This document shows, piece by piece, positions 1-19,732 of a stretch of 64,000 nucleotides of DNA. Origin of the DNA: an uncultured Rhodospirillales bacterium. GTDB taxonomy: Bacteria > Pseudomonadota > Alphaproteobacteria > CAAGCB01 > CAG-977. Where the stretch lies: positions 21,832-85,831 of the forward strand of contig CACYSU010000001.1 of assembly GCA_902777205.1 (NCBI GenBank), in the 5' to 3' direction. The position numbers were made by a program, and so were the translations under genes. The notes beneath the pieces were generated by a model. That model saw only the letters and a list, made by a program, of their open reading frames with translations, did no database searches and was not told where the DNA came from. Numbering within the stretch: position 1 is the stretch's first letter; each line of letters opens with the position of its first letter.

Positions 1-1415
1 TTTGAAAAATTAGGAGCTGTTATCATTTTTAATTTAGAAAACAAACCTATTTTTGAGAAAGGCATTTCAGTTTTAATTCGTATTAAAAATAAAGCAAACA
101 ACTCTCGTAATGCTTTTCCTAAATCGGAAAATTTATCGTGTGTTTTGTTTAAATTTGATATTCCGGCTTTATTGTTATTTTCACCGATTTTTGCCTGTCC
201 ACATTCTCCATACGGCGGATTGATGTAGATAATCAGCTTTTTTTGTTTTTCAGGATCATTGATAATGTTTTTCAGCTTTGCAGGCAGTTAGTCAAAGCTG
301 TCGTTTAAAAAATCGAATTGAAAAACGTGATTTTTCAACAGGCGTTGATTCTCTTTCATCACGCGCACATCGGAATCATCAAGAGTAGATGCCCAGACAT
401 TTTCGATGTTGGTCAAGCCGTTTTCCATATTTCCAGTTCCGGCGCAACAATCCCAGATATAGTATTCGTCCTGCCAGTTTTCGCCGAATACCCGCGCCAG
501 ATATTCCTGACTTTTTTCCACCCAGATTTGCGGTGTGAAATATGCGCCCTTGCGTTCGCGAATGCCGCTCGGGACAAGCAAATCTTGCCGTTCCAACATA
601 TATTTGCGATACTCTTTTTTCGGCGGCCGTTCGTAGGCGTTCCAAAATTTTTTATGCGCGCTTCCTTTGTCCTTGAAACAGATTTTGTTAAACAGTCCTT
701 TTTCCAGCTGACATTCGTAAGCGTCGTAATTCAGCAGGATTTTCAGCTTGTCCGATATGGTTTTATTTTTTTCGGACAATAAATCCGCCAGATAAAAATC
801 GCGCGGCATAATGCCGTGTTTCAACATTTCGGGCGGAATGGCGATTGACGGCAAAACGTCGCGGCTCCAGCGGTCAAATACCTGCACAAAATTATTTTTT
901 GTGATTTGTATAAAACCGCTGATGCCGGAATAGGACAATAAGTCGTTAAAAGTATGAAATAAATTTCTTTTTACAAACTCTTTAACGGCATCTTTGTCTT
1001 CAAGCCAGCGGAAAGTGATTTCCTTGCCGTCCAAAATCCGTTTGATTTTCGCTGCCGTTTTCGGGGACACAGCGCTGGGGCGTTCGTTCCAGTTGAAATC
1101 GTTTGTTTGAAAAACATCTTGCGCATGATGAAATTCAACAAAAGTGATATCCTGCGCGTCAAAGCATCCGATAAAAATAGGAGGCAACTCGGCTTTATCA
1201 ATACGTGGTTTAATAGTTAAAAATAGCTGTGCCAGCATCAGCCATTTATCATAATTGCCCTTTTTAGATTCCGCCCAATAAAGCGCGTGCCCTTTTTTAT
1301 CCGATACGGCGAAATCCAATCTGTTCTTTTCAACCACGCAATCTTTGAAAAACAAATGCTCGATTTGCGTTTTAACGTCTTCTTCGCTGAACGGCATAAT
1401 CAAATCCCCGATCAA
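1..1415 (-). pseudogene. N6-adenine DNA methyltransferase-domain protein (type IIG RM / BREX PglX-like architecture). The frame is interrupted by an in-frame TAA at 288-290 and the gene continues beyond the window start.
   Basis: The 375-aa ORF 288..1415 ends with motif I (W-D-C-C-A-G-T-G-N-M) preceded by Y-F-T-P, which is typical of gamma-class N6-adenine MTases. Directly after the TAA the same frame continues through bases 287..1 as LPAKLKNIINDPEKQKKLIIYINPPYGE..., carrying catalytic motif IV (NPPY) about 75 aa after motif I. I hand-translated this. An N-terminal region of about 290 aa precedes the MTase domain. AT-rich. Confidence 0.55.
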
Positions 1416-1811
1416 AAAATAAACACCGCCTTTTCAGGCGGCTCGGGGAGTTCAGAAATCATACTTGAGAATGATCGTTTGACCTTTAAAGCTGTCCGCG
1501 GGACGACCTCTGAACATACGTCAAAAACTCCCCGATTTTGAAAAATCAAATTTTTTCGGGGAATGGGTATTTATAACCGTTTGAACTTAAATAAAAAATC
1601 CTGTCTTATTTGTTTTTTGACTTTTTAGAAACCGTTTTCAAGGTAACGTCCCGGTAACAATCCCGAAGCGTGTTTTATCCTTTGAAAGCAACCTCTGAAA
1701 AACGAAAACCTTTTCCGGTTCCCGCTTCGTTAAAGATGATACGTCTTTTTACCGCGAAAAGCAATTTGAGAAAAATCTTTATCCCGTTTTTAATCGTTTT
1801 CGCCCGGCATC

Positions 1812-1862
1812 AATTAAAATCAATCAAAATCAAAAAATCGATAAAAATCAACAAGTTGATTT
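1812..1862. repeat. Phased direct repeats of AAAATCA(A) (4 copies, about 10-bp period) ending in the inverted repeat ATCAAC-AAG-GTTGAT, 25-75 bp upstream of ORF 1888. Putative regulator-binding or promoter array.
   Basis: Read directly from the sequence: caattaaaatcaatcaaaatcaaaaaatcgataaaaatcaacaagttgatttc. Confidence 0.4.
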
Positions 1863-1887
1863 CATTAAACAGCCTTGTTATCCTTTC

Positions 1888-2916
1888 TTGAGAAAGAATA
1901 AGAGGGAAACGATGGCGACAGGATTTGAAGAAATAGAAATACCGATAAAGCCGACCTGCACTTTGCGGGAAGCGTGCGAATGGGTGGCGTTCGGTTATCC
2001 GCCGACCGATGAGGAATTCAAGAACGTTTACCGCGACGCCTATCCGTATCAAAAAAAGCTTTTACGGGCGGCGAAAGACAAATTAAAAGTGCTGATTAAA
2101 ACGCAAAAAGTCGCCATAACCGGGCGTTACGCTTTCTTTTTCGGAGCGGACACGCTGACGATGTGGCTCTTCACGCGCTGTTTGATGGTGTTGCTCTGCT
2201 TCCTGATCGGCTTGACGCGGTTGCTTCACCCAAGAACGAAGCTTCCGGTCAGGTTTTTATATTACCGGTGGTTGGAAAATCTTCAGGCGTTTCATTTCAA
2301 CGGCGTCTGCCGGAAAGTGTATCACTTCAAAGCACGGTATTGCCACAAAGCGGGACGTTTCGATTTCGAGTGTTCCGATCCCGCCGCCGAGTTTGAGGAA
2401 GGCGATATTCCGGTTCCCGATTGGCAAACTTTGCGATTAAAGCGATACCGCAAAGTGTTCGGCAAGGAAACTTCCGTCGAAGACGCGCGTTATCCGGTCA
2501 TCACTTACGGAACGATGGGCGCGATCGCCGATTTCAAGCTGGATTTGAAGCGCAACAGAGTATCGCGCTTTTTACGGGGCTTTGCGGAAATAGAGGTCGA
2601 TACGAAAGAGCTGATGCGCGTTTGTCCGCCCGTGAATCCGCCGTTGTTCAAATACGAGGAGGCAAAACCGGCGGAAAAGAGATCCGTCTTGCCGCCGTTG
2701 CTTGCCCTTGTCGCCGAAGTGATAGAGGAAAACGGCTACACCGCCGACAACATTCCGGAAAACAAAGTCGTCGAACGGGCTTTGATTCAAAAAGCGAAAG
2801 AAAAAGGATTTGAGTTCGCTTCCGAAAATCAGATACAGGAAGCGGCGCGACTGGCGAACGGATGGGGGCTTCAAACGGTCGGACGGCGCGGCAAAGGCAG
2901 ACCCGCCAAACGATAA
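1888..2916 (+). CDS. Hypothetical protein. C-terminus has an AT-hook-like GRRGKGRPAKR.
   Basis: 342-aa ORF with an alternative ATG at 1912. I recognise no family. The C-terminal GRP-type basic tail suggests DNA binding. Low-GC island context. Confidence 0.4.
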   Translation: MRKNKRETMATGFEEIEIPIKPTCTLREACEWVAFGYPPTDEEFKNVYRDAYPYQKKLLRAAKDKLKVLIKTQKVAITGRYAFFFGADTLTMWLFTRCLMVLLCFLIGLTRLLHPRTKLPVRFLYYRWLENLQAFHFNGVCRKVYHFKARYCHKAGRFDFECSDPAAEFEEGDIPVPDWQTLRLKRYRKVFGKETSVEDARYPVITYGTMGAIADFKLDLKRNRVSRFLRGFAEIEVDTKELMRVCPPVNPPLFKYEEAKPAEKRSVLPPLLALVAEVIEENGYTADNIPENKVVERALIQKAKEKGFEFASENQIQEAARLANGWGLQTVGRRGKGRPAKR

Positions 2917-3038
2917 CGCTTGACAAACGGCTGGGATAACCTTATATTTTCTTTCAGATAGAGAGGCTATATACTACATTAAGCTTTTTTAAGCAGGATT
3001 TCGGTCTGATTGTAGTTGACGCCTCTTTTCTGTTGCCT

Positions 3039-3710
3039 TTACAAAAATCCCAACCGGCGTCCTTTGGTGTATTCCTCGTTAAAGCGGTCGATTTCCTTTA
3101 TTTGTTTCAGAACCGAGTTAGCGTTCATATCGCGAATCAGCTTGTAAATCATATTGTGGATTCTCGCCGGTTCGTTCAAAGCATCCGTTACCGTTATCAA
3201 AGAACCGTAATGAAACACCTTGTTCCTATACATACGTATTCTGTTGACACGTTCGTAAACGCGCCCCGAAACAAGCGTTTCCTTCGTGCAGTCGAAGATT
3301 TCCTTCAACAAGGTCGGATGCTTGCTCCATAACGCTTTCTTGTAGGCGGAGGAAAAAAGATAAGCCCAAAATCCGAAAGTCAGTTCCGAAATGAGATGAT
3401 CTTTATTATTCGGGTCTTTTTGCGCTTCCGCCGAAAGCCGCTTTCTGATTTTTTGAAAAGTGTCCGCGTTTTCACGGCAAACGGCATCGATCCGCTTTTC
3501 CGAAACGGTTTCATCACCGATGAATTTCGTCGGAACCAATGACGCCATACCGAACCGCGCCATCGAACGGATATAATAAGCGGTCGCGTCCGACGGATTT
3601 TTCGCCAGCAAATCATCACATTTTACGACCGCCTTTTCATAATCGGCATAGCTTTTCCGCAAAAACAAAAAAGGCAAATCATCTTGTGTTTTATCGACTG
3701 CTTCCCGCAT
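3039..3710 (-). CDS. Abi_2/HEPN-like abortive-infection family protein (candidate).
   Basis: 223-aa ORF. The C-terminal R-N-K-V-F-H fits the HEPN R-x(4-6)-H motif in an Abi_2-like context (AbiD/AbiF-type). AT-rich, next to the MTase island. The family call is from memory of the motif and was not searched. Confidence 0.45.
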   Translation of the reverse strand: MREAVDKTQDDLPFLFLRKSYADYEKAVVKCDDLLAKNPSDATAYYIRSMARFGMASLVPTKFIGDETVSEKRIDAVCRENADTFQKIRKRLSAEAQKDPNNKDHLISELTFGFWAYLFSSAYKKALWSKHPTLLKEIFDCTKETLVSGRVYERVNRIRMYRNKVFHYGSLITVTDALNEPARIHNMIYKLIRDMNANSVLKQIKEIDRFNEEYTKGRRLGFL

Positions 3711-3819
3711 ATCATCCCTTTCGCTATTTTTTTAATTAAATTCTTCAAATAAGTCTTGAAGTCCTTTTTAAACAGAGTAGAATATAACGCCGTTATCGTC
3801 TTTTTGAAAAGGCATTTTT

Positions 3820-5061
3820 ATGGACACGACTTTTCCGGCTCCCGAACAGCCGATGACGGAAGAAACGCAAGAATCTTCCGAAGAACCTCCGTCTTCCCCT
3901 CTTCCCCACAACCATTCGGAACACGTTATCTCCGACAGATCCCGCCGTTTTCTGCACACTTATTTTCCGCAGACCACCGAAGCCCAATGGAACGACTGGC
4001 GTTGGCAGATCCGCAACAGATTCCGCAAAAAAGCCGACATCGAACGGGTCCTGCATCTGACCGACAGCGAAGCCCGCGCGCTTGAACACGGAAAGAAAGG
4101 CTTTCCCGTCGCGATCACGCCCTACTATATGAGTTTGCTTGATCCCGACGATCCGACACAGCCGTTGCGCCGTTGCGTCATTCCCGTTTCCGACGAATAC
4201 GATATCTCGCCCGAAGAAAAAGTCGATCCGCTGAGCGAAGACCGCGACAGTCCCGTCAAAGGATTGGTTCACCGCTATCCGAACCGCGTCTTGTTCCTGT
4301 CGACCGATTTTTGCAGTACGGCGTGCCGTTATTGCACCCGTTCCCGTCTGATCGGCGCGACGCATCACGAATGCAAACACGATTACTGGGAGCAGGCAAT
4401 CCAATACATCGCCGAACACGAGGAAGTGCAGGACGTCGTCGTATCGGGCGGCGATCCGCTGACTTTGCCGACGGAAACGCTTGAAAAACTGTTAGCCCGT
4501 CTGCGCGCGATCCCGCACGTTTCGATCATCCGGCTCGGGACGAAGACGACAGCCGTTCTGCCCCAGCGCATCACGACGCGTCTGGTCCATATGGTCGCCA
4601 AGTATCATCCCGTCTTTGTCAGTATCCACGCGACCCATCCCGACGAACTGACGCCGGAGATGAAAGCCGCTTGCGAACGGCTGGCCGATGCCGGTATGCC
4701 GATCGGCTCCCAGACCGTTTTGCTCAAAGGCGTCAACGACGATCCGGAAACGATGCGCAAGCTGATGATGGGCTTGCTCTCTTTCCGCGTCAAACCGTAT
4801 TACATTTATCAATGCGACCCCGTCCCCGGATCCCGTCATTTCAGAACGCCCGTTCAGACGGGACTGGACATCATCAAGCATCTGCGCGGCTTCATTTCCG
4901 GATACGCTGTGCCGCACTATGTGATCGACGCTCCGAACGGCGGCGGCAAAGTACCGTTGCTGCCAAACTACGTTGACGGCATCGACGGCGAAAATCTGCG
5001 TCTGCACAATTACGCAGACAAGTCTTACGTTTATCCGGATGTTTTCCGCGAAGGGGTTTAA
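3820..5061 (+). CDS. kamA: Lysine 2,3-aminomutase (radical SAM, KamA type).
   Basis: 413 aa. Contains the C-R-Y-C-T-R radical-SAM CxxxCxxC cluster and the KamA-family hallmarks (AITPYYMSL, GGDPL, DxPNGGGK). Length matches true KamA rather than the shorter EpmB. Confidence 0.85.
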   Translation: MDTTFPAPEQPMTEETQESSEEPPSSPLPHNHSEHVISDRSRRFLHTYFPQTTEAQWNDWRWQIRNRFRKKADIERVLHLTDSEARALEHGKKGFPVAITPYYMSLLDPDDPTQPLRRCVIPVSDEYDISPEEKVDPLSEDRDSPVKGLVHRYPNRVLFLSTDFCSTACRYCTRSRLIGATHHECKHDYWEQAIQYIAEHEEVQDVVVSGGDPLTLPTETLEKLLARLRAIPHVSIIRLGTKTTAVLPQRITTRLVHMVAKYHPVFVSIHATHPDELTPEMKAACERLADAGMPIGSQTVLLKGVNDDPETMRKLMMGLLSFRVKPYYIYQCDPVPGSRHFRTPVQTGLDIIKHLRGFISGYAVPHYVIDAPNGGGKVPLLPNYVDGIDGENLRLHNYADKSYVYPDVFREGV

Positions 5062-5062
5062 A

Positions 5063-6034
5063 ATGCGCATAGGAATCACTTACGACCTGAAAAGCGATTA
5101 TTTAAAGGAAGGCTTTTCAACGGAACAAGTCGCCGAATTCGACTGCGAGGAAACGATCGACGCGATCGAAAACGCCATCAGAAACGAAGGCCACACGCCC
5201 GACAAAATCGGCAACGTCAAAGCGCTGGTGAAGCGCCTGGCCGCCGGCGACCGCTGGGATTTGGTCTTTAACATCGCGGAAGGCATCGACGGTATGGGAC
5301 GCGAGGCGGAAGTCCCCGCTTTATTGGAAGCGTATCACATTCCCTCCACTTTTTCGGGGGCGGATCTGATGGCTCTGACGCTGAACAAGGCGATGACCGA
5401 CGCGGTCGTTCGGTCTTACGGCGTGCCGGCGTGCGAATTCTTCTTGGTCAAAGAAGCGGCGGATATCGATGATATGCCGCTGTCCTATCCCGTGTTTGCC
5501 AAACCCGTCGCCGAAGGAACCAGCAAAGGCATTTCGGCGAAATCCTGCGTCCATAACAAAGCCGAATTAAAAGACGTCTGCACCGATTTGTTGGAACGTT
5601 TTCACGAACCCGTTCTGGTCGAAACATATCTGTCCGGACGGGAATTCACCGTCGGCCTGATCGGCAGCGGCAAGAACGCCCGCGTCATCGGTGTTGCGGA
5701 AATCGTTCTGGGCGAAAAAGCGGAACAGGAAGCGTACACCTACGAAAACAAACAGAAATACGAAGACCGCGTCAGATACGTTCTGGTTGACGAACCGAAA
5801 GTCGCCGAAACGGCGTTGAAAGCGTGGGAAGCTTTGGACTGTCTGGATGCGGGACGCATCGACGTCCGGCTGGACGCACAGGGCACGCCGCGCTTTATCG
5901 AAGTCAATCCTTTGGCGGGATTGAATCCGACTTATTCCGATTTGCCGATTTTATGTAAAATGGCAGGAATGGATTACCAGACGTTGATCGGGGAAATTCT
6001 GAAATCCGCGATTCACAGAGTCAAAAACAGTTAG
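5063..6034 (+). CDS. ATP-grasp enzyme, D-alanine--D-alanine ligase family (function unknown).
   Basis: ATG at 5063 lies one nt after the kamA stop, giving MRIGITYDLKSDY.... Ddl-like N-domain and ATP-grasp core (GREFTVGLIG, EVNPLAGL). Confidence 0.75.
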   Translation: MRIGITYDLKSDYLKEGFSTEQVAEFDCEETIDAIENAIRNEGHTPDKIGNVKALVKRLAAGDRWDLVFNIAEGIDGMGREAEVPALLEAYHIPSTFSGADLMALTLNKAMTDAVVRSYGVPACEFFLVKEAADIDDMPLSYPVFAKPVAEGTSKGISAKSCVHNKAELKDVCTDLLERFHEPVLVETYLSGREFTVGLIGSGKNARVIGVAEIVLGEKAEQEAYTYENKQKYEDRVRYVLVDEPKVAETALKAWEALDCLDAGRIDVRLDAQGTPRFIEVNPLAGLNPTYSDLPILCKMAGMDYQTLIGEILKSAIHRVKNS

Positions 6035-6531
6035 AAATCCATCGTGTAAATCAGGCAATCGTCCCCTGCCGCATAGTAGTTTTTCAGGCGCGCTTCTTCC
6101 TTAAAACCGCACGATTGATAAAATTTTTGCGTCGGCAGATACTGTTCCCGTCCGGCCGTCTGTAAAACAAGCTTTGTCGCCCCGAAACCTTTCACCAGAC
6201 GGACGACCTCCTTCATCAGCTGTTTGCCAAGCCCTTGTCCGCGGCAATTGTTATGCACGGCAATCCAGTAAATTTCAAAGCTTGACACCGTGCAGGGCAC
6301 GCGCGCGAAACAGGCGTAGCCAAGCGTTTTGTCCCCGTCATCCAAGAAAACAAAGTCGTAGTTTTCCGGTGAATTGTCGTCCGCCAACGCTTTTTCGGCC
6401 AATTCGATCGCGACGTCGATTTCATCCGGCGCTTCCTCAAAAAATCCCGTCGAAGAAAGAATTTCGCGAACAGCGTCCACATCCCGCGGAAAAATCTCAT
6501 TTCGAAAAAGCATTGGCGACGATCCTTTCAA
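6031..6531 (-). CDS. GNAT family N-acetyltransferase.
   Basis: 166 aa. Acetyl-CoA binding motif R-G-Q-G-L-G-K-Q-L. Overlaps the stops of both flanking ATP-grasp genes. Confidence 0.75.
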   Translation of the reverse strand: MKGSSPMLFRNEIFPRDVDAVREILSSTGFFEEAPDEIDVAIELAEKALADDNSPENYDFVFLDDGDKTLGYACFARVPCTVSSFEIYWIAVHNNCRGQGLGKQLMKEVVRLVKGFGATKLVLQTAGREQYLPTQKFYQSCGFKEEARLKNYYAAGDDCLIYTMDF

Positions 6532-7429
6532 TGACTTCTTTATCGCTCAATCCGGCTTCGTGCGCCATCGCGATAAAACCGGAATCCGGCGCGATACAGG
6601 GATTCGTGTTCAAATCAATGATGAACAGTACCCCTTTGGCGTTCATCCTGAAATCGATCCGCGTGTAGCCGCGCAAATCCAGAACGTCTTTGCATTTCAA
6701 AGCGACGGCGGAAAGCCTTTCCCTGACTTCGTTTTCGACGTCAAACGACCGGCGGCTGAGTTGATAAGCGTCGCAGTCCTCGTTCCATTTCGCTTCATAC
6801 GTCAGAATCTTATGCCCTTTGAAATCGGGGGAAAAGCACATCTCCGCCGGCGGCAGAATCTCATCGCCCAACAAAGCGACGTTAAATTCCCGCCCGTCGA
6901 TATATTCTTCGGCGATCCACGCCAGACCGGTTTCCCGCTCTTTTTGTTTCAACGCACTCCGCAATTCGTCTTCGGACGCCGGAGAAACGACACAGGTATC
7001 GTCCAAATGCGCGGAAGCGTGTTCCGTTTTCGCTTTCAGCAAATAGCTTGCCCCCGCCCGATAAACCGAAGACGGCGCGGGCAATCCGTTTTGCAAAAAC
7101 AGCCGCTTTGCCAAATCCTTGTCCGCGCTGACCAGATGCGCGAACGTCCTGTTTCCCGTATACGGCAGACGCAATATGTCCAACAGCTGCGGCGCGAAAA
7201 CCGCCAATCCGCCCTGAGAACAAACGGATTCCGTCAGGTTGAAAACGACATCGGGGGCATACCGTTGAAGCGTGCCGATCGTCTTTTCCAAATCGGCGTA
7301 AAACGGGATTTGCCGGACTTCGTTTCCGTCGAATAAAACGCTTTCGATAAATCCGGCCTCCGTCAACGTATCCATAGCGTCCGGTGAAGACGGGTTTATC
7401 AGGTCATCTCTTAAAACGGCGATTTTCAT
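6497..7429 (-). CDS. ATP-grasp enzyme, D-alanine--D-alanine ligase-like (second copy).
   Basis: Start taken at ATG 7429 (MKIAVLRDD...), preceded by GGCGG. Ddl-like architecture (EEYIDGREFNVALLG, IIDLNTNP). Confidence 0.75.
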   Translation of the reverse strand: MKIAVLRDDLINPSSPDAMDTLTEAGFIESVLFDGNEVRQIPFYADLEKTIGTLQRYAPDVVFNLTESVCSQGGLAVFAPQLLDILRLPYTGNRTFAHLVSADKDLAKRLFLQNGLPAPSSVYRAGASYLLKAKTEHASAHLDDTCVVSPASEDELRSALKQKERETGLAWIAEEYIDGREFNVALLGDEILPPAEMCFSPDFKGHKILTYEAKWNEDCDAYQLSRRSFDVENEVRERLSAVALKCKDVLDLRGYTRIDFRMNAKGVLFIIDLNTNPCIAPDSGFIAMAHEAGLSDKEVIERIVANAFSK

Positions 7430-7451
7430 TTTTCCGCCCCGTAAATGCAAA

Positions 7452-7480
7452 AAACGACCGCGACGGCCGTTTTTTTTAAA
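7452..7480 (-). terminator. Putative intrinsic terminator downstream of tRNA-Arg.
   Basis: GC-rich hairpin acgaccg-cga-cggccgt with one mismatch. It is flanked by A6 on one side and T7 on the other, so it could act in both directions. Confidence 0.4.
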
Positions 7481-7484
7481 GAAT

Positions 7485-7560
7485 GGTGCGCCCGGCGGGA
7501 TTCGAAACCACGACCCTCGGCTTCGGAGGCCGATACTCTATCCAGCTGAGCTACGGGCGC
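7485..7560 (-). tRNA. tRNA-Arg (anticodon CCG).
   Basis: The reverse complement is GCGCCCGTAGCTCAGCTGGATAGAGTATCGGCCTCCGAAGCCGAGGGTCGTGGTTTCGAATCCCGCCGGGCGCACCA. Full cloverleaf, anticodon loop CUCCGAA, CCA encoded. Confidence 0.9.
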
Positions 7561-7670
7561 GTCTGTAAAGCACACAATACCCGATTTGATAAAAAAAACA
7601 ATTAAAATTTAAAGCGTGCATAAATTACTTGACTAAGCCCTTAAAAACAGATTACTTATCTTATTGTCGT

Positions 7671-7744
7671 TGGGGCGTAGCCAAGCGGTAAGGCAACGGA
7701 CTTTGACTCAGTTAGTCTTGGTTCGAGTCCAGGTTCCCCAGCCA
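7671..7744 (+). tRNA. tRNA-Gln (anticodon UUG). Two mismatches, both on the 3' side of stems.
   Basis: TGGGGCGTAGCCAAGCGGTAAGGCAACGGACTTTGACTCAGTTAGTCTTGGTTCGAGTCCAGGTTCCCCAGCCA. It resembles E. coli tRNA-Gln (3-bp D stem, UUCGA T-loop, G73, CCA). G29 is opposite A41 and C6 is opposite U67. Confidence 0.75.
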
Positions 7745-8132
7745 ATCACAAGCCCTTGATTTTCAAGGGATTTTTTGTTTTCCGGCAGACAATTTACAAA
7801 GCCTTCGGGAAAACTCCGGTCAACCGACGGTCAACCCCGACACCGTTCAAATGTCATCAATCTTCCTCATTCATCATCAGTCAAAAGCGTAAAAAACGCA
7901 ATCCGTATTTTCTTTTTTTTCCGTCCGGTAATGATAATCAATCACAATCATACACGGGGGATATTGCAAACAAGGCGTTGATATGCTTAGATTGATAACA
8001 GCTTTTTAGCACAGACCGGTATTTACCGAGCCTGCACACAATTCAATCGAAACCGACATCATTTATTTGATGAAGGACGTGTGCGCCGGTGTTTCTGTGT
8101 GTTCAAGCCTTCGTCAAAGAAAGGAGGAACAC

Positions 8133-8357
8133 ATGGAACGAACCTGTAGAGAAGCCTGCAACATATCCCCCGCCGGATTGATGACACCGCGTGACGCCGC
8201 CGTTTACATCGGCGTCAAGATCAACACGCTTGCCGTCTGGCGTATGACGAACAAATACGGCTTGCCGTTTGTCAAATTGGGAAAAGTCGTCCGATACCGC
8301 AAAACCGATTTGGACGAGTGGATCAACAAAAACGTATCAACAGACAGGGCGGAGTAA
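8133..8357 (+). CDS. AlpA-family phage/ICE transcriptional regulator-excisionase (HTH).
   Basis: ATG 8133 is preceded by AAGGAGG. The sequence RDAAVYIGVKINTLAVWRMTNKYGLPFVKLGKVVRYRKTDLDEWI fits the AlpA/Xis HTH pattern. Confidence 0.7.
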   Translation: MERTCREACNISPAGLMTPRDAAVYIGVKINTLAVWRMTNKYGLPFVKLGKVVRYRKTDLDEWINKNVSTDRAE

Positions 8358-8371
8358 TCCGCCCTGTTTTA
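8346..8371 (+). terminator. Intrinsic terminator overlapping the AlpA stop.
   Basis: Perfect inverted repeat CAGGGCGGA-gtaa-TCCGCCCTG followed by TTTT. Confidence 0.5.
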
Positions 8372-8501
8372 GTAATTTTTTATTTTTCAATCAAACGACG
8401 ATATGGCAGGGGAGTATAACAGGCATAGGCAGAATGACGGTTTATCCGCCAATCAGGAGAGTATTTGAGTTAAGTCCCCATTCATAAATATTTTTGCAGA
8501 A

Positions 8502-9293
8502 TCACAGTTTTTGCAGATACGGAATCAATGTTTCGTGTGATAACAATTTAACATCAGCCGCATTTGCCAGTTTTCTCGCGGAATCGGTATAATCTTGATT
8601 GGAAACGACGCACGCATAATCGCAATTATAAAATTTCTGTCCCGCGATGACTTCCTGAACTGCGGAATTTCCGATAAGACTTGAATAGAATTTACACTGT
8701 ATCGCGATATGAGTCCGGTCTTTTCTGACAATTAAATCAACACCCTGATCACCCGTTTTCGGTGTCATTCCACATTCAAAACCGGCTGATACGCAAAGTT
8801 CACGAACAAACCGTTCATAATCTTCGCCTGTTTGAATATTCGATACATTAAAATCAATTTCCGCAACTTCTTTTGCTTTTTCAAAGCAACGGAAGAAAAA
8901 CTCTTGCGGCATATTCTTATTTTCTCTCAAAACTTTTCTAACAAAATACTTTAAATCTTCATCAAACTGTTCTTCGTTGAAAGTTTCAATTCCATATTCA
9001 TCAACAACATTTGCTCTATTAAACTTCGTTTTCAAAACAGCATAATGTTTTACCATTTCAGAAATTACATATTTTTCGAACTCATCAAATTCCTTTTCTG
9101 CAACTTCTTTTGCTTGTTCAAAGCAATGAAAGAAAAACGCTTGTGGCATATTTTTATTTTCTTTCAAAACGTTTCTAACAAAATACTTTAAATCTTCATC
9201 AAACTGTTCTTCATTAAAAGTTTCAATTCCATATTCATCAACCACTTTCGCTCTACTGAACTTTGTTCTCAAAACAGCATAATGTTTTACCAT
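8502..9293 (-). CDS. Mrr-catalytic-domain (PD-(D/E)xK) restriction-endonuclease-like protein with a duplicated N-terminal 79-aa module.
   Basis: The C-terminal region (GDQGVDLIVRKD...IAIQCKFY...) fits the Mrr_cat D...(D/E)xK pattern. N-terminal residues 1-79 and 80-158 are about 85% identical. Confidence 0.65.
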   Translation of the reverse strand: MVKHYAVLRTKFSRAKVVDEYGIETFNEEQFDEDLKYFVRNVLKENKNMPQAFFFHCFEQAKEVAEKEFDEFEKYVISEMVKHYAVLKTKFNRANVVDEYGIETFNEEQFDEDLKYFVRKVLRENKNMPQEFFFRCFEKAKEVAEIDFNVSNIQTGEDYERFVRELCVSAGFECGMTPKTGDQGVDLIVRKDRTHIAIQCKFYSSLIGNSAVQEVIAGQKFYNCDYACVVSNQDYTDSARKLANAADVKLLSHETLIPYLQKL

Positions 9294-9350
9294 TTCAGAA
9301 ATTACATATTTTTCAAACTCGTCAGCTTCTTTTTTACGTATTTCTTCTTC
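8820..9350. repeat. In-frame tandem duplication (2 x 237 bp) plus a partial third copy at the 5' end of the Mrr-like gene.
   Basis: The anchor string cataatgttttaccatttcagaaattacatattttt occurs at 9041 and 9278, a period of 237 bp (79 codons). A partial copy runs from 9294 to about 9350. Confidence 0.8.
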
Positions 9351-9928
9351 TCTACGTTTTTCTTCTTTACGGTTTTCTGATTCTATACGTATAGACCGTT
9401 TTTCCGCCTCTATATAGCAATCAAATAGAAAAGATTTCGCATAATATTCTCTTCCACTTTCACTAAATTCTTTTTTTTGAAAAATCTTCCAAATATTTCA
9501 AAAAGTTGACGTAATGAAGCTCTCTATATTTTCTATTTAAGATAGGATAGTTTTTCATCATCCGTTCAACCATACGATCTTTTATCGACATTTTTAACAG
9601 CCTCCTTTTCTCTTTTTCCCGTTGAAACCCCTTATAAAAAACTCCGTAGCACTCCTAAATAATGGAAAGGCTTCCCTTTCTTTCCCCCAAGTATGCAAAA
9701 CAGCCCATCCCGCAACAACCAGAGCAGAGAGAGCATCAAAAAAATCTTCCAGTTTCTCAAAAAACAATACCAGAAATGAATCATACTTCCAATTCCCGTA
9801 TCTTATCAAAAATATGCTGGGCTAATTCGTTCCATTTTTGCGAGTGCTGTAAGTCAAGTTTCCTTTTATTATCAAAATCCATAGAAAGCTCTTCTCTTAT
9901 AGATTTCCCTGCACGTTCATAGTCATCT

Positions 9929-10342
9929 TTATATTTCAGTTTTTCTAATATTCTTTCTTGAAGCAAATGATTTTTTTTTAAAAGTTTCTGCAATTTCATT
10001 GATTTCCGTTTCAATTTTTTTTCCAAACAGAACACAGCCTTTTTTAGCCAGATTTTGTATTTCCTGACCAACAATCCAAAAATTCTTTTCAGGATCTGAA
10101 CCATCGCCCATTTCGTCAGCAGGAGTATGTTTAAATGTTTGTGTTTTATAGCCAAGCTTTTTTGTTTCTTCCCAAAAAGCCCACCTTTTTTCGAACAAAG
10201 CCAAATTATGCTGACGATTTTGAATTATTCCCTGCCAAACAGCTATACCGATTGCAATAAAGGCGGCAATCATAGGGCCAAAAGCGGATAAATAATCAAT
10301 CCAATCTTTTGGTTGTTCTATTATAATCGGATAAGCAAACAT
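9929..10342 (-). CDS. Hypothetical membrane protein. Possibly frameshifted into ORF 9781..10155.
   Basis: 137 aa with an N-terminal hydrophobic helix. The run T10AAA at about 9968-9981 separates two frames that read as one continuous coiled-coil-like protein. Confidence 0.45.
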   Translation of the reverse strand: MFAYPIIIEQPKDWIDYLSAFGPMIAAFIAIGIAVWQGIIQNRQHNLALFEKRWAFWEETKKLGYKTQTFKHTPADEMGDGSDPEKNFWIVGQEIQNLAKKGCVLFGKKIETEINEIAETFKKKSFASRKNIRKTEI

Positions 10343-10359
10343 TTTGGAATCCCTAAAAA

Positions 10360-10545
10360 TTATTGCTTATTTTGTCCATTAATTAACGTATTCAATTTAT
10401 CCAAAGTATCAGCAAAATTGTAGGCTTCATCAATTTCTTTCAACCGATTCAAAGAGTTTGTGACCAACAGCATTTTCGCTTCATCACCAATGTCCGTTCT
10501 TTCCAATATCCGCCGTATTTTTGACAGATGAAATTCTTTTATCAA
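10360..10545 (-). CDS. Small hypothetical protein (61 aa).
   Basis: ORF only. Co-oriented with and adjacent to the membrane protein. Confidence 0.25.
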   Translation of the reverse strand: MIKEFHLSKIRRILERTDIGDEAKMLLVTNSLNRLKEIDEAYNFADTLDKLNTLINGQNKQ

Positions 10546-10807
10546 TCCGTGAAAGAAAAAAGTCTCAAATTCATTCCGTTGGCCTTTTATCGCTCAGGAA
10601 TCCCATTAATTATCCTATCCGATTTATCTAAGGTTGCAACGAAAATAATGCCTTTTATTCCTCCTTTCGCCGTTCGTTCAGCATCGAAACCATTGTCGAA
10701 AACACTGGAAAGCTATCGGATATTCACTTTATCTGGTTGAAAAAAAGAAAACTGTAAAAAAACGAAATGAAACGGATTGCACTGACTCAGCTGGAAGAAT
10801 AGAAATC

Positions 10808-11744
10808 TTACTTTACCACCCACTTGCCGCCTTTGAGAGAACCGACGCGCTCAATGATGCCTTCGTCTTTCATCTTTTTCAGCTGCCATTTAATGCCGCT
10901 TTCGGAAATACCGACGATTTCCGCCAGTTCCTGACGGCTGATCTGCGGATTCTTCCTGATTGCGTCCAAGATTTTTTGGGTAGTTTTTTCCCTAGTTTTT
11001 TCCCTGTTTTTCTTTCCGGCTTTATCGTCCGCTTCGGCAAACGGCTTGTTATAGCGGAACGTTACGCGGAAGAAAGTGTCCGAAATCTCGAACACGTCCG
11101 GCGCGTAAGCGTTCAAAATCCGCCGCACGCCCGACCCAAGACGCTCGACCAGTTCCATATCCTGAAAAATTCTCATCAATTCGGGATTGCGCGGACACGA
11201 CTTGCCGTTGAAAAAGTCTTCTTTCGTCATTCCCCACGGCAAGCCGCCCGTTGACGTGATCTCTATTCTGTCCGAAAATATTTCGAACTTCGGCGGATTG
11301 TTGTATGAATAATCGTTATGCAGTATCGCGTTAATGACCGCTTCTCTTAATGCTTGCGGATCGACCATCGGGCGTTCTTCGCGCTTGGTTGCCGTTACGC
11401 GAGCGTAAATCCTGTTTTCAACGAAAAACTTGTCCAAGACCTGTTCGGTCGCCTTGATTAAAGAGCAATATCCGAAGTTCTTATTTTCCGTCAAAACGTC
11501 CCGATCCGTTCAGACGTTCGCCGGCGATGTCAAACAAGCCCATAACGGACGGACGAATCCCCGTTATCAGGCGGTCTTTGATTTCCAGTTGAAGCGCGTC
11601 GCACTTGTCAACGCCGACGGGATTCCCGTTCTTGTCAATGCCGATATAGATCGTTCCGCCGTGCGCGTTCAGAAACGCCACCGCTTCTTTTTCCAAAGCG
11701 GCAGTCAGTTTTTCTTTGTATTCCGTGCGTTCGTTTTCAACCAT
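10808..11744 (-). pseudogene. AlbA_2 (Schlafen-like divergent AAA) + HATPase_c_4 + C-terminal wHTH protein (RecG-C-like 'putative transcriptional regulator'), disrupted by a frameshift near 11481-11494.
   Basis: ORF 11481..11744 encodes the AlbA_2 N-domain. ORF 10808..11494 encodes the ATPase-like and wHTH part (QELAEIVGISESGIKWQLKKM). The two overlap by 14 nt in different frames. Confidence 0.5.
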
Positions 11745-12184
11745 AAAGCACCCCTTTTCCTATTTATAAAAGATAACGCCGCCATTCTCAAACAAGAAAT
11801 TTTTTTGCCGTTTTTGTGCCACAAAAAGGCTATCCTGCAAAAAAAGTCGGATATCTGTTTTTCAAACATTTAGGCGGCGGGGAAGTCTTTGATATTTCAG
11901 AGGGGCTTTCCTTTGCAGGATACGCGATTTGTCGGACAAAATCGCACGTGGAATCCCGCCTTACGCCTCTTTGCCCTGCCGGTTTTGTCCCGACCCGGTA
12001 AAGTCCGTCCCTTTCAATCCGACAATCTGCAAATTAAATCCGTTTATTTTCAATAAGATATAAACCATTTTCGCGCTTTTACGGCGGAAATTGCACGTTT
12101 GCAAAATTGCCAAGCGGTCGGCGTCGGTCTTTTCTGGAAGAGTTCCGTCAAAAGGCGGTCATTTTTACGAAAGGACACCAAACT

Positions 12185-12403
12185 ATGAAAACATATTTAA
12201 CACGCAAGGAAGCTTCCTCTTACCTGATGGAAAAGGGATTGAACCGGACGTCGGCGACGTTGGCGAAATACGCGACGATCGGCGGCGGTCCGAAGTTCCG
12301 CAAGTTCGGCAAAACGCAAGTCGTTTACGATGTCGCGGACTTGGACGCTTGGGTGGCGGGACAGCTTTCCGCGCCCGTTCATTCGACTTCGGAACAGAGG
12401 TGA
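12185..12403 (+). CDS. AlpA-family HTH regulator/excisionase (second copy).
   Basis: ATG 12185 is preceded by AAAGGA. MKTYLTRKEASSYLMEKGLNRTSATLAKYATIGGGPKFRKFGKTQVVYDVADLDAWV. Confidence 0.7.
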   Translation: MKTYLTRKEASSYLMEKGLNRTSATLAKYATIGGGPKFRKFGKTQVVYDVADLDAWVAGQLSAPVHSTSEQR

Positions 12404-12408
12404 ACGGT

Positions 12409-12720
12409 ATGGCAAAAGTGAAGATTGCTTTACGATTGCCGCCCGAACACAAAGCGATGCTCGACAGGTTTGACAACCCGTCGGGCGTCGCCCGCAGATT
12501 TATCGCGGCGGGGTTGGCGAAAGCGAACGCTCCGGGAACGAAAGAAATCGAAAAGCTGACGGAAATCCGCGAGGAACTGCGTCGGATCGGCGTCAATCTG
12601 AATCAGATCGCCCGCGCGTTGAACGGCGGCGCGGAAGCGAAAAACATCAAAGAACACTTGGAACGCCTTGCGCTTTTGCGGGAAAGGATTCTCCGCCTGT
12701 TGAGGTATTACTATGGTTAA
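12409..12720 (+). CDS. mobC: MobC-family mobilization (relaxosome accessory) protein.
   Basis: Contains the conserved R-I-G-V-N-L-N-Q-I-A-R motif. ATG 12409 is preceded by GAGGTGA. Confidence 0.8.
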   Translation: MAKVKIALRLPPEHKAMLDRFDNPSGVARRFIAAGLAKANAPGTKEIEKLTEIREELRRIGVNLNQIARALNGGAEAKNIKEHLERLALLRERILRLLRYYYG

Positions 12721-13456
12721 ACGCAAACACGATTGGCTTGACGAGCATATCCGCGGCATCCGGCGGGAGCGTCCAGGACTGCCCTTTCATTACGAGCCTT
12801 TACAAAAGCACTTTATCAGCCTGTCCCGTTCCCGTCCGTTTGAAGCGGTGTTCAAGATAGTCGGTTACGCCAAAAGCGTCGGCACGGTTTGCGCTATGGC
12901 GGAATACGTCGCGGAAAAGTCGAAAGGCTTGGAAGAAAAGCTGACCTTGACGGACGAAACGGAAACGCGTCTGACGGCGCAGGAGTTCAAAGAACGGCTG
13001 ATCGAAGAACCGGAAAGCGGACGCAAAAACGGGCGGTGCGCCGTTCATTTTATCGTGTCTTTCCCGAACGGGTGCGGTATGGCCTCGGAGGATTTGGAAG
13101 CGTTTGCGACCGAATATATGCGGCCGTTCGCCGAAAACGGATATTCGTATGTGTTCGCCGCGCACCGTCATCAACGGCACAAACACATCCACTTTATTTT
13201 GAAACTGAACAACGGCTTGAAACGGTTGGAGTTCAATCGGCGGGAAATCGAGCAAATGCGCTTGCGCCAGTCCGAAATCGCCAGACAGTTCGGCGTCGAA
13301 TTGCAGGCGACGCGGTTCCGGGACAGGGACTTTTCTCTGACGCAAGTCGTCATTCCCCGCAAACACAAAACGCTTGAACAGCTGAAACGATCCCGCGCCG
13401 CCGCCGCCCGTCCCAAGCCCGCAGAACATTCAAAAGAAAGAGGTATCGAACGATGA
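12713..13456 (+). CDS. Relaxase/mobilization nuclease domain protein (MOBQ/MOBP-like), short at 247 aa.
   Basis: Histidine triad H-R-H-Q-R-H-K-H-I-H-F-I-L. Start overlaps the mobC stop (ATGGTTAA). Confidence 0.75.
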   Translation: MVKRKHDWLDEHIRGIRRERPGLPFHYEPLQKHFISLSRSRPFEAVFKIVGYAKSVGTVCAMAEYVAEKSKGLEEKLTLTDETETRLTAQEFKERLIEEPESGRKNGRCAVHFIVSFPNGCGMASEDLEAFATEYMRPFAENGYSYVFAAHRHQRHKHIHFILKLNNGLKRLEFNRREIEQMRLRQSEIARQFGVELQATRFRDRDFSLTQVVIPRKHKTLEQLKRSRAAAARPKPAEHSKERGIER

Positions 13457-13463
13457 CATTTTT

Positions 13464-15074
13464 TTATTGTTGTTCAATAGAAATCGCTGCATATCCCCAT
13501 TCCATTCTTTTTTTGTTAAAACTTGGAATACGGATTCCAGAAACAGCCTGATTGTCTATAAGATGAGCTTCCGCTATTAGTTTTTGAGAAATATAAACGT
13601 CTTCGACAAAACCGAACGAAGCATTTTCGGGGATCATTAAAACACCCGAAAATGAGTGTTTTAAAGAAGATGCTTCATTCGTTTCTTTAACGGAAACTGT
13701 TTCTTCTTTTCCAATGCCATACTCAATGGTCTTGGTTTCAACGACGGAATAAATCGCCGGCGGATTAAGCTTCGAAAAGGGTATCACGGCATCATTGAGA
13801 TTCTCAAAAAGTATATGAAAAACTTTCTTTTCATAATTGACGTGATCGACAATTCCTTTCTTCGTTTTTGCCAAATCCCATTCTGCTCCATCTCTTTTGC
13901 GGATATCAAGAATATGGAATTTGTCCTTTTCCATTTTTCCTTTTACCCAAACGGGCGTTCCGTTCGGGAAATTTTCTTTTACTGATTTAAACACTCCGGA
14001 CAAGACGATTCTATTGTCGGCAAGTTGAATAAAAACTTTTCTTTTTTGAGGTTTCTTATTAAAGAAGTCTCCGATAATGCCGGAATAATCGGGCAAATTT
14101 TCTGTTAGCAATTTGCTTGCCTGTAAAGAGTTTTCCCGATAAAAAGCATCATTTACCTGAAGCGGCGTTACAGAATCTTCACGACTTTTATGCCAAGCGT
14201 TATCAAGCGGCTTAAGAGACCAACCGTTATCTTCTATTAGTTTTTTCATTGATTGAAAAATACTTTTAGCTCTGCCCAAATCGTTTTTTTCTTCCAACAT
14301 CTGCGCAATGCTCAGGTAGATTTTATACTTAAAGTTATCATCTTCCGGACACAGAACGGCTTTACAAAGGCAGGAAAATTTCAGTTCGTCGTCCGTTATG
14401 CAATCCGCCAAAAGTTTCCACGCCCAAGAACAATTACTCTTTTCCAACAAAAACTCTTTTGCTGTCTCTGCCGCTTCTTCTTTTTTTCCAACGGAAAGCA
14501 ATAGTTCAACGTTATCTTTTAAAAGAAACTCGTTTTCAGGACACTTTTTACTCGCAAGGTCAATATAAGGAAGAATCCAATTAACGGCATTTTCCGTATT
14601 TCTAAGATCACCCCTTAAAATATCCTTCACGGCATAACGGATGCTTTTTTCCGCCAGAGACGGATATTCATTCTTGCCATCCTTGCTTTTTCCTTTTACC
14701 CAATCATCATCTTTTAGTTCGTCCAGATTCCACAAATAAAGAAAATGGATCAAACGAAAATCGTTTTCTATAAGAAAATCTTTTAAATCGAGTTGTTCCC
14801 ATAAATGGACAACTTGAAACAAAAAAAGGTGATGAACCTGGGAAACCTTTTTCTTTTTCCTGAAAAAATAAGCGTATTCATTAACGCATTTTTTAACACC
14901 GGAATAATTTTCTTCCTGAATGTGTTTTTTTAACAACTTATATAAAGTCCACGCGTAAGAAACAAGGCTTTCTTCGTTTCCCTGTTCGGCCAGGCTTTTA
15001 TATATTTCACGCGCTTCTTCCAACAAACCTTTATCGGATAATTCCTTTGCTTTTAAATAAAGATCGGTATCCAT
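13464..15074 (-). CDS. Hypothetical TPR-like repeat protein with two C-terminal cold-shock-like OB-fold modules. Partner of the helicase.
   Basis: 536 aa from ATG 15074. RBS AGGAA sits 7 nt upstream. The start is one nt after the helicase TGA (TGAtATG). An alternative TTG at 15101 is possible. The N-terminal half is alpha-helical and repeat-like. The C-terminal half has two ...FGFVEDVYIS... / ...HVNYEKKVFHILF... CSD-like segments. Confidence 0.65.
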   Translation of the reverse strand: MDTDLYLKAKELSDKGLLEEAREIYKSLAEQGNEESLVSYAWTLYKLLKKHIQEENYSGVKKCVNEYAYFFRKKKKVSQVHHLFLFQVVHLWEQLDLKDFLIENDFRLIHFLYLWNLDELKDDDWVKGKSKDGKNEYPSLAEKSIRYAVKDILRGDLRNTENAVNWILPYIDLASKKCPENEFLLKDNVELLLSVGKKEEAAETAKEFLLEKSNCSWAWKLLADCITDDELKFSCLCKAVLCPEDDNFKYKIYLSIAQMLEEKNDLGRAKSIFQSMKKLIEDNGWSLKPLDNAWHKSREDSVTPLQVNDAFYRENSLQASKLLTENLPDYSGIIGDFFNKKPQKRKVFIQLADNRIVLSGVFKSVKENFPNGTPVWVKGKMEKDKFHILDIRKRDGAEWDLAKTKKGIVDHVNYEKKVFHILFENLNDAVIPFSKLNPPAIYSVVETKTIEYGIGKEETVSVKETNEASSLKHSFSGVLMIPENASFGFVEDVYISQKLIAEAHLIDNQAVSGIRIPSFNKKRMEWGYAAISIEQQ

Positions 15075-15075
15075 A

Positions 15076-17865: not shown

Positions 17866-18063
17866 AAAACCTGTGCTTACGATGTGGAAACACTATCAGT
17901 GTAAAGCTTTTTATCCATAAAACAAGGATAATATCGCTTGTGATATAAAAAGTGGCTCTATCGAATATTTTATCAAGCACTTTCCCGAATAACTGATAAA
18001 ATACATAACTTTTTAGTAATTTAGAGGGCTTCTGTTTTGAAAAAAAGAAGCCCTCTAATTGCC

Positions 18064-19242: not shown

Positions 19243-19732
19243 AACTCATTACCTTTCATACCGCGGTAACGCCACGGTAACTTTGTGAAGGAATCGACTG
19301 AATGAAACAGCCTTTTCCCGAACACGCTTTCAAAGGAAATGAAAACAAGATATTCCAATAAAATCAATATGTTGGAAAACACTTTCCAACACGGGGGAAA
19401 ACAAATAAAAACAAGAAATCTTTTCTTTTCAAGAACTCCCCGAACCATCGCAGATGAATTCGGGGATGTTTCCCGTTTTGTTTGACGCAAAACGAATGAC
19501 GGCGCATCTCTGTGCCGATTGGATAAAAGGCTTTTGAAGACCCCGCGCCCGCTAAGGTGCTGTCCCGTTTATTACAACGGGCATGGGGTCAGTATAGTAA
19601 AATTCCGTTTTTTCAGGCAACAAAAAAATAATCGCCAAAGACGTGGATAAAATGGAAGATGATGTGGCCGGAAACATTCGGGCGGTATTTACGTATTCCA
19701 AAATTTTTCGGCACGGCGCGGAAAGGGGGCAT

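Follow-up and report, generated by a model that had tools for sequence, protein, structure and literature searches.

The cassette described here occupies positions 3820–7429 of a 64-kb stretch of contig CACYSU010000001.1 from an uncultured Rhodospirillales bacterium; this whole stretch is called the window. Four genes encode a KamA-family radical S-adenosylmethionine (SAM)/pyridoxal phosphate (PLP) aminomutase, two ATP-grasp ligases with the fold of D-alanine–D-alanine ligase (Ddl), and a GNAT N-acetyltransferase. A preliminary description of the locus claimed these four open reading frames, with two distinct Ddl-family ligases among them. All four were recovered where it had placed them, and Pfam and NCBIfam searches confirmed their families. 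The two ligases share approximately 25% identity and are therefore two different enzymes. No further copies of the four genes are found elsewhere in the window. The cassette is real, strongly conserved, and mis-annotated, its biochemical outline is well supported, and it is apparently undescribed; a full-text literature search yielded nothing beyond the canonical ablA/ablB pathway and papers on unrelated subjects. The features of the locus are listed below.

3756–3783, plus strand: candidate sigma-70-like promoter (TTGAAG-16-TAGAAT, from a consensus scan), 37 nt 5' of the kamA-like ATG
3820–5061, plus strand: KamA-family radical SAM/PLP aminomutase, 413 amino acids (Pfam and NCBIfam matches)
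5063–6034, plus strand: ATP-grasp 1, Ddl fold but not a Ddl, 323 amino acids (Pfam Dala_Dala_lig_C, E = 1e-30)
6031–6513, minus strand: GNAT N-acetyltransferase, 160 amino acids (Pfam Acetyltransf_1, E = 3e-15)
6497–7429, minus strand: ATP-grasp 2, Ddl fold but not a Ddl, 310 amino acids (Pfam Dala_Dala_lig_C, E = 3e-20)
7449–7477, minus strand: hairpin with A-tract, GC stem, and U-tract (−17.1 kcal/mol, z = −2.0), between tRNA-Arg(CCG) and the ATP-grasp 2 ATG

The ATP-grasp 1 ATG lies 1 nt past the kamA stop codon, and the 3' end of ATP-grasp 2 runs 17 nt into the start of the GNAT gene. The stop codons of ATP-grasp 1 (TAG, 6032–6034) and GNAT (TAA on the minus strand, 6031–6033) have two bases in common. 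The locus is predicted to consist of two translationally coupled pairs in convergent orientation. The hairpin is a candidate bidirectional terminator-like element, and approximately 19 nt are left for a promoter between it and ATP-grasp 2. Transcription of the ATP-grasp 2–GNAT pair could arise by read-through from tRNA-Arg, or the hairpin could serve as an attenuator.

Family assignments and active-site residues

The KamA-like protein matches the Pfam models Radical_SAM and LAM_C and exceeds the cutoff of the NCBIfam model TIGR00238 (334 bits; cutoff 199). This general family model is the only one it passes, and every substrate-specific equivalog fails. The scores are 427.4 bits for the AblA/KamA lysine 2,3-aminomutase (TIGR03820; cutoff 525.4), 394.6 bits for the glutamate 2,3-aminomutase Eam (TIGR04368; cutoff 650), 357.4 bits for the BlsG-type arginine 2,3-aminomutase (TIGR04468; cutoff 600), and 253.8 bits for EpmB (TIGR03821; cutoff 369.3). 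The solved clostridial lysine 2,3-aminomutase, 2A5H, is matched with E = 7e-119. Window residues C165, C169, and C172 correspond to C125, C129, and C132 of 2A5H, K377 to K337, and R174, D333, and D370 align with Arg134, Asp293, and Asp330. In 2A5H, Arg134 binds the lysine carboxylate and Asp293 and Asp330 hold the epsilon-ammonium group; glutamate 2,3-aminomutase has other residues in place of this aspartate pair. The Fe-S cysteines, R134, D293, D330, and K337 are invariant among 64 aligned KamA homologues linked to the cassette. Because Asp293/Asp330 and the other lysine-binding residues are conserved, lysine is the likely substrate.

The same 64 homologues differ from 2A5H at two places. Position 268 is D, N, or S and never C, and the tail past position 360 spans 0–42 residues (mostly 9–31, median 16) compared to 56 in 2A5H, where the C-terminal tail bears Zn-site cysteines and mediates tetramerization. 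The designation of this protein as a genuine KamA therefore needs qualification: the CxxxCxxC cluster, Arg134, Asp293, Asp330, and Lys337 are kept, but the protein falls below the lysine equivalog cutoff and lacks Cys268 and the C-terminal tail. We infer that it acts as a lysine 2,3-aminomutase and represents a distinct subfamily, shorter and with neither the Zn site nor the tail.

Both ligases carry the public annotation 'D-alanine--D-alanine ligase'. The Ddl models TIGR01205 and NF002378 have cutoffs of 243 and 245.65 bits, and ATP-grasp 1 scores 139.6 and 120.1 bits and ATP-grasp 2 scores 102.2 and 97.1 bits against them. PylC (TIGR03909) gave 22.8 bits with ATP-grasp 2 against a cutoff of 248.3, and it was absent from the best 25 of 35 NCBIfam families matched by ATP-grasp 1. 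The AlphaFold models have high predicted local distance difference test (pLDDT) values of 90.4 for ATP-grasp 1 and 91.0 for ATP-grasp 2. Among the matches listed by Foldseek, the best PDB entries for ATP-grasp 1 are all Ddl (template modeling (TM) score 0.69–0.77, 18–27% identity), and Ddl entries are also the top matches for ATP-grasp 2 (TM 0.70–0.79). The 50 matches listed consist only of Ddl and Van ligases at 16–27% identity to the two proteins. Both ligases have the three-domain Ddl fold together with the full set of ATP, Mg, and catalytic residues.

Active-site residues were compared by aligning DdlB with 70 ATP-grasp 1 and 46 ATP-grasp 2 sequences, using DdlB numbering; the DdlB reference was confirmed over residues 67–304. 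K97, K144, E180, E187, K215, R255, D257, and N272 are invariant in both sets, and E270 is E in all 70 ATP-grasp 1 sequences and E or D in ATP-grasp 2. Neither ligase carries the Ddl specificity residues Ser150, Tyr216, and Ser281/Leu282. The S150 position is T in ATP-grasp 1 (T153) and A in ATP-grasp 2 (A138). The Y216 position varies among E, Q, and K in ATP-grasp 1 and is an invariant W in ATP-grasp 2 (W215). The L282 position is an invariant D in ATP-grasp 1 (D293) and G in ATP-grasp 2, which also has C278. The N-terminal region of both proteins is devoid of the Ddl GGxSxE motif, and ATP-grasp 1 has invariant acidic residues, E25 and D27, at the position of Ddl Glu15. Ddl Glu15 binds the ammonium group of the first substrate, and the L282 position is where the carboxylate end of the second is bound. 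E25, D27, and D293 of ATP-grasp 1 suggest a pocket that would fit cationic, lysine-like substrates. Both ATP-grasps are predicted to be active amide ligases that are not D-Ala-D-Ala ligases. The possibility raised at the outset that they are orthologues of the cell-wall Ddl does not hold, given best scores of 140 and 102 bits against cutoffs of 243–246 and the replaced specificity residues.

The GNAT belongs to its superfamily by Pfam Acetyltransf_1 (56.8 bits; cutoff 20.7), and its acetyl-CoA motif, RGQGLG of the R/Q-x-x-G-x-G/A type, is intact. RimI is its best family match at 66.5 bits, below the cutoff of 86.4. The match to AblB is 19.9 bits (TIGR03827; cutoff 205.1), and a weak match to Sat4 gives 22.6 bits. 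The closest solved relative is 2R7H, a full-length match at E = 6e-35 deposited as 'Putative D-alanine N-acetyltransferase of GNAT family', which we take to be an uncharacterized structural-genomics entry from Desulfovibrio G20. The full-text literature search found no functional paper on 2R7H.

Conservation, accessory genes, and genomic setting

A scan at one genome per species gave at least 599 pattern matches and at least 591 confirmed relatives, and 80 loci were retrieved. Presence was counted by tblastn with the four window proteins over ±8 kb per locus, using only loci with enough flank. Near ATP-grasp 1, kamA is found in 64 of 75 loci, ATP-grasp 2 in 58 of 69, and the GNAT in 51 of 65. 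All four genes occur together in 43 of 60 loci, and 42 of these 43 are collinear on one strand in the order kamA–ATP-grasp 1–ATP-grasp 2–GNAT. The four families are adjacent in most of the 80 species-level genomes, which is far beyond chance. An absence of co-conservation with kamA had been named as grounds for abandoning the beta-lysine idea, and these counts are the opposite of that outcome. Maridesulfovibrio ferrireducens and a groundwater deltaproteobacterium supply two more loci with the same operon.

The carriers comprise at least 591 species in more than 10 phyla, and they include Lentisphaeria, Thermodesulfobacteriota, Planctomycetota, Bacteroidales, Spirochaetales, Ignavibacteriales, Aminicenantes, WOR-3, and others. 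KamA and ATP-grasp 1 are kept at 50–60% identity in varied core-genome neighborhoods. Apart from KamA, no cassette member is more conserved than ATP-grasp 1 (49–61% identity across phyla), and ATP-grasp 1 homologues with 56–62% identity occur in Lentisphaerae, Desulfovibrionales, and Syntrophales. This patchy spread across phyla at 50–60% identity implies past, ancient horizontal transfer. Plasmid and phage collections held no cassette orthologues, only distant paralogues at up to 32.5% identity. Full-length ATP-grasp 1 paralogues (27–32% identity) are located on Sinorhizobium/Rhizobium symbiotic plasmids (H1, H3, H4, and H8), and a similar distant paralogue is present on phage record MT838362.1, a 5.4-kb unannotated 'bacteriophage sp.' from human feces.

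ATP-grasp 2 and the GNAT form a single polypeptide in L045, L047, and L067, where the two share a reading frame, and in P0239, where Pfam confirmed the fusion. These fusions tie the ligation and acetylation steps together. Apparent kamA–ATP-grasp 1 (L006) and ATP-grasp 1–ATP-grasp 2 (L013) fusions were rejected as artifacts of crude open reading frame calling, the frames being different. Split modules occur in L003, L005, and L007, among others, and the modules also part in the window's own lineage. L085 (74–78% identical) has kamA and ATP-grasp 1 only. L083 and L084, whose ATP-grasp 1 is 91% identical, have ATP-grasp 1 facing GNAT–ATP-grasp 2 with no kamA upstream, and their nucleotide homology to the window begins exactly at 5060. 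In L083, flagellar genes and a 1289-residue protein stand in place of the window's kamA. This separation defines the unit as module A (KamA and ATP-grasp 1) plus module B (ATP-grasp 2 and GNAT). The convergent, overlapping arrangement first noted is true of the window, where the stops do overlap, but it is the exception, one co-directional operon being usual elsewhere. The window's lineage appears to have rearranged an operon that is collinear elsewhere.

Accessory genes are inserted in some of the loci. Eleven of 82 related loci have, within the cassette, a gene for a protein of approximately 595 residues that combines a full histone-deacetylase-family (HDAC) domain (E = 1e-71) with a weak or degenerate N-terminal GNAT-like domain. 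A DMT_6 small transporter gene is inserted in two loci, and four planctomycete loci have a gene for a Cys-rich CxxCxxCC protein (PF03692) between kamA and ATP-grasp 1. The window contains no homologue of the HDAC fusion or of DMT_6, and its only CxxCxxCC-like match is marginal (E = 6e-4). Among 132 immediately flanking genes surveyed with Pfam, the HDAC gene was the only conserved neighbor apart from cases of lineage synteny.

L081 257–2044 and L054 10009–11817 (and nine other loci): GNAT-HDAC gene
L044 7505–8035, L066 7489–8004, L067 3866–4492, and L078 1904–2416: CxxCxxCC (PF03692) gene

In the Smithella clade, a LysA-like gene lies after the cassette. A link to phosphate was considered and dropped: PhoU_div/PHO4 genes follow the cassette only in Smithella/Syntrophales and pstB-phoU occurs in one Aminicenantes locus, which is lineage synteny. 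The 'c4' neighbor cluster was also discarded as a mixture of unrelated ABC ATPases.

Ten of 66 loci carry the sigma-54 motif TGGCA-N7-TGCW upstream of kamA; its density there is 0.22 per kb compared to a background of 0.014 per kb, an enrichment of approximately 15-fold. NtrC-type Rec-AAA-HTH response regulators adjoin the cassette in nine loci from a subset of Thermodesulfobacteriota. The motifs and the regulator genes indicate signal-induced rather than housekeeping expression in those lineages. In the window, neither the motif nor an NtrC-type regulator is found by the cassette. Rfam searches of the region upstream of kamA, in the window and in eight loci, detected no family.

L013, L035, L038, L039, L054, L060, L061, L072, and L077: among the carriers of the sigma-54 motif upstream of kamA
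L001, L029, L060, L061, L072, L077, and L079: among the loci with an adjoining NtrC-type regulator

The GC content of the cluster (3820–7429) is 0.538, that of the left flank (1–3819) is 0.433, that of the 7.7–24 kb segment is 0.431, and that of the 24–64 kb segment is 0.572. The cluster probably belongs to the core-like DNA. The inference from GC richness to a chromosomal trait stands only roughly: cluster GC is near that of the core-like part and unlike that of the island-like flanks, and no orthologues turned up in the plasmid and phage collections, but past horizontal transfer is implied. Window positions 7671–19,300 (GC 0.43) look like an integrated mobilizable defense island beside tRNA-Gln, and the core genes rpsA, cmk, aroA, and lnt come after it. 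L083 is 80% identical at the nucleotide level to window positions 5060–7780. At the same tRNA-side position where the window continues from 7780, L083 has a different island (10400–16972), with HU, YolD, an IMS-family polymerase, ArdC, and MobC/relaxase. A different island at the same site in a close relative marks an integration hot spot. On the other side, window positions 1–3710 (GC 0.43) are possibly an accessory segment.

8502–9293, minus strand: Mrr-type restriction endonuclease (island)
10808–11494, minus strand: HATPase_c_4/HTH protein (island)
12091–12720: MobC (island)
12713–13456: relaxase (island)
13464–15101 and 15076–17865, both minus strand: two-gene TOTE conflict system (island)
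18064–19242, minus strand: tyrosine integrase (island)
288–1415 (minus strand), 1888–2916 (plus strand), and 3039–3710 (minus strand): left-flank open reading frames with no Pfam match at E ≤ 0.001

A candidate beta-lysine pathway and its alternatives

On balance, we think it probable that the cassette is a self-contained biosynthetic pathway in two modules for an acetylated, beta-lysine-containing small product. In module A, the KamA-like radical SAM/PLP enzyme would turn free L-lysine into beta-lysine, and ATP-grasp 1 would form the first amide bond via an acyl-phosphate. In module B, ATP-grasp 2 would form a second amide bond, and the GNAT would use acetyl-CoA to N-acetylate one remaining free amine. 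The product may be a cytoplasmic di- or tri-'peptide' (pseudopeptide) of small size, N-acetylated and with beta-lysine as a component; the step order and product size are those that the enzyme set suggests. Since the neighborhood of the cassette holds no further conserved biosynthetic gene, the co-substrates are probably common, ordinary metabolites. Where it is present, the embedded GNAT-HDAC protein could deacetylate the product for turnover or recycling. The proposal of a beta-lysine-derived peptide in the preliminary description gains support from the non-Ddl character of the ligases, the co-conservation of kamA, and the ATP-grasp 2–GNAT fusions, and beta-lysine would then be one of the ligated units. 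The most likely role is that of an inducible protective or compatible solute.

Several points weigh against this pathway. The substrates proposed for the ligases hang on a handful of pocket residues, and the product and its role are deduced from the genes. Proteins are the more frequent substrates of HDAC-type enzymes and RimI-like GNATs. At least one cassette member is missing nearby in 17 of the 60 full-flank loci, and a relative with 91% identity has no kamA beside ATP-grasp 1; the KamA step could therefore be supplied in trans or be dispensable. The habitats of the carriers are mostly non-saline (digesters, groundwater, lakes, peat, and subsurface), so that a salt osmolyte is not especially favored. 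No osmoregulatory riboswitch was associated with the cassette in the Rfam search of the window and eight loci, and no osmoregulatory transporter in the Pfam survey of the 132 flanking genes. The osmolyte role is weakly founded, and the physiological role is the weakest part of the proposal because the carriers come mostly from non-saline anaerobic habitats.

The least improbable alternative, although still an unlikely one, is a secondary-metabolite cluster in which two ATP-grasps resembling L-amino-acid ligases build a bioactive tripeptide, antimetabolite or siderophore-like, and the GNAT gives self-protection. ATP-grasp pairs that build small bioactive peptides are an established theme, and rhizocticin, tabtoxin, and dapdiamide are bioactive peptides that invite the comparison. 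The GNAT of streptothricin self-resistance acetylates beta-lysine amines, in line with the weak Sat4 match, and ABC-2 exporter genes follow the cassette in L036 and L082. However, the flank survey revealed no conserved exporter, resistance target, or tailoring enzyme, the plasmid and phage collections lack orthologues, and the uniformity of the cassette across its many species, phyla, and core neighborhoods is unusual for antibiotics. Protein modification is slightly less likely again. Here, the ATP-grasps would put beta-lysine on a protein lysine or carboxylate, in an EF-P-type (elongation factor P) system without EpmA or a RimK/RimI-like one; the GNAT would be the writer and the HDAC the eraser. 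Like EpmB-type enzymes (model length 321 residues), the KamA-like protein has no C-terminal domain, RimI is the best family match of the GNAT, HDAC-family enzymes typically deacetylate protein lysines, and genes for the translation factors TypA, ArfB, and YchF adjoin a few loci. These translation neighbors are not conserved across loci, however, and neither efp nor any conserved target or carrier gene was present in the 82 related loci or the window. The EpmB score (254 bits) is below its cutoff of 369, the ligases belong to the Ddl subfamily, whose characterized members join small molecules, rather than to RimK/LysX, and a Ddl-type ligase acting on protein is unprecedented. The specific version in which beta-lysine is placed on EF-P or a ribosomal protein in phyla without EpmA, EarP, and YmfI, and is toggled by GNAT acetylation and HDAC-fusion deacetylation, has a somewhat smaller chance still. 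If true, it would be protein beta-lysylation by a new enzymatic route with the first protein-directed Ddl-type ligase.

Cell-envelope modification is quite improbable. In this reading, the ligases would work like the ATP-grasp D-aspartate ligase of peptidoglycan cross-bridges and attach beta-lysine or another amino acid to a lipid head group or a peptidoglycan precursor; their Ddl fold and the presence of LpxB or a glycosyltransferase near single loci are consistent with this. However, mur, fem, and lipid-synthesis genes are not among the conserved neighbors of the cassette, its hosts (Planctomycetota, Spirochaetales, Bacteroidales, and Thermodesulfobacteriota) have very different envelopes, and sigma-54/NtrC-type inducible control is atypical for wall synthesis. 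The chance that the genes are coincidental neighbors, with an AblA/AblB-type N-epsilon-acetyl-beta-lysine pathway or lysine fermentation lying beside two cell-wall Ddl genes, is very slight. The public ligase annotation would agree with it, and KamA plus GNAT pairs do make acetyl-beta-lysine. Ligase scores far under the Ddl cutoffs, changed specificity residues in the pockets, the low AblA (427 against 525 bits) and AblB (19.9 against 205 bits) scores, and a four-gene synteny with fusions kept across phyla effectively refute it. The flanks surveyed also contain no kamDE, kdd, kce, or kal-type genes.

If the acetylated beta-lysine pathway is correct, hundreds of strict-anaerobe species, including syntrophs, sulfate reducers, planctomycetes, Bacteroidales, Lentisphaerae, and spirochetes, share a compact route to an undescribed beta-lysine metabolite that is hidden behind the 'D-alanine--D-alanine ligase' label. 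The identity of the product would let thousands of annotations be corrected, add two substrate specificities to the Ddl branch of the ATP-grasp superfamily, and define a third physiological use of beta-lysine, beside acetyl-beta-lysine and EF-P modification. The product could also turn out to be a stress protectant that matters in digesters, sediments, and the gut. Experiments are within reach, with only four genes, a crystal structure of a homologous GNAT (2R7H), and cultured carriers such as Maridesulfovibrio ferrireducens and Desulfovibrio alaskensis G20, the latter of which appears to have at least the GNAT homologue.

Comparison with known systems

The products of ablA and ablB make acetyl-beta-lysine (PMC3543383, PMC9337991). 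The AblA/AblB systems of methanogens, green sulfur bacteria, and Pelobacter, and yodP-kamA of Bacillus, resemble the cassette in pairing a KamA-family aminomutase with a GNAT, in having a deacetylase in the locus at times, and in inducible expression. In contrast, two Ddl-fold ligases are obligate partners in the cassette, its KamA is a subfamily separate from AblA, and its GNAT is a single-domain protein of 160 residues unrelated to AblB.

Ngg acetylates and ligates glutamine to form N-acetylglutaminylglutamine amide (NAGGN), an acetylated dipeptide osmolyte (PMC8070244). Ngg/AsnO and the cassette both couple a GNAT to an ATP-dependent peptide ligase, sometimes as a fusion, without a ribosome or nonribosomal peptide synthetase. 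The cassette differs in having a radical SAM aminomutase that would give a beta-amino acid and two ligases rather than one, and no AsnO-type amidotransferase is conserved near it. No Ngg-type family appears among the 10 NCBIfam matches of the GNAT or the best 25 listed for each ligase. The Ngg ATP-grasp, of the RimK-like subfamily, is probably distinct from the Ddl-like ligases of the cassette.

PylB and PylC offer the parallel of a radical SAM lysine mutase and, after it, a Ddl-like ATP-grasp by which the rearranged lysine is linked to an amine. PylB is not a KamA-family/PLP enzyme, the PylC similarity is marginal, and the cassette has a GNAT and a second ligase and no PylD. EpmB and EpmA share with the cassette a short KamA-family enzyme without the C-terminal domain and the use of beta-lysine for ATP-dependent ligation. 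The EpmA ligase is an aminoacyl-tRNA synthetase paralogue rather than an ATP-grasp, and the EpmB score is again below cutoff. No efp was found in the 82 related loci or the window, and no epmA was found nearby in the loci, the search for it being confined to them rather than genome-wide.

The Ddl and Van ligases are alike to the cassette ligases in whole-chain fold (TM 0.69–0.79 over the 50 PDB matches listed) and in their complete catalytic set. They differ at S150, Y216, and L282, which are replaced in the cassette ligases, and in gene neighborhood, which is kamA and GNAT rather than mur and fts. We group the cassette with the pathways for acetylated amino-acid and peptide solutes rather than assign it to a named one, its components falling short of the curated NCBIfam cutoffs for AblA, AblB, EpmB, PylC, and Ddl.

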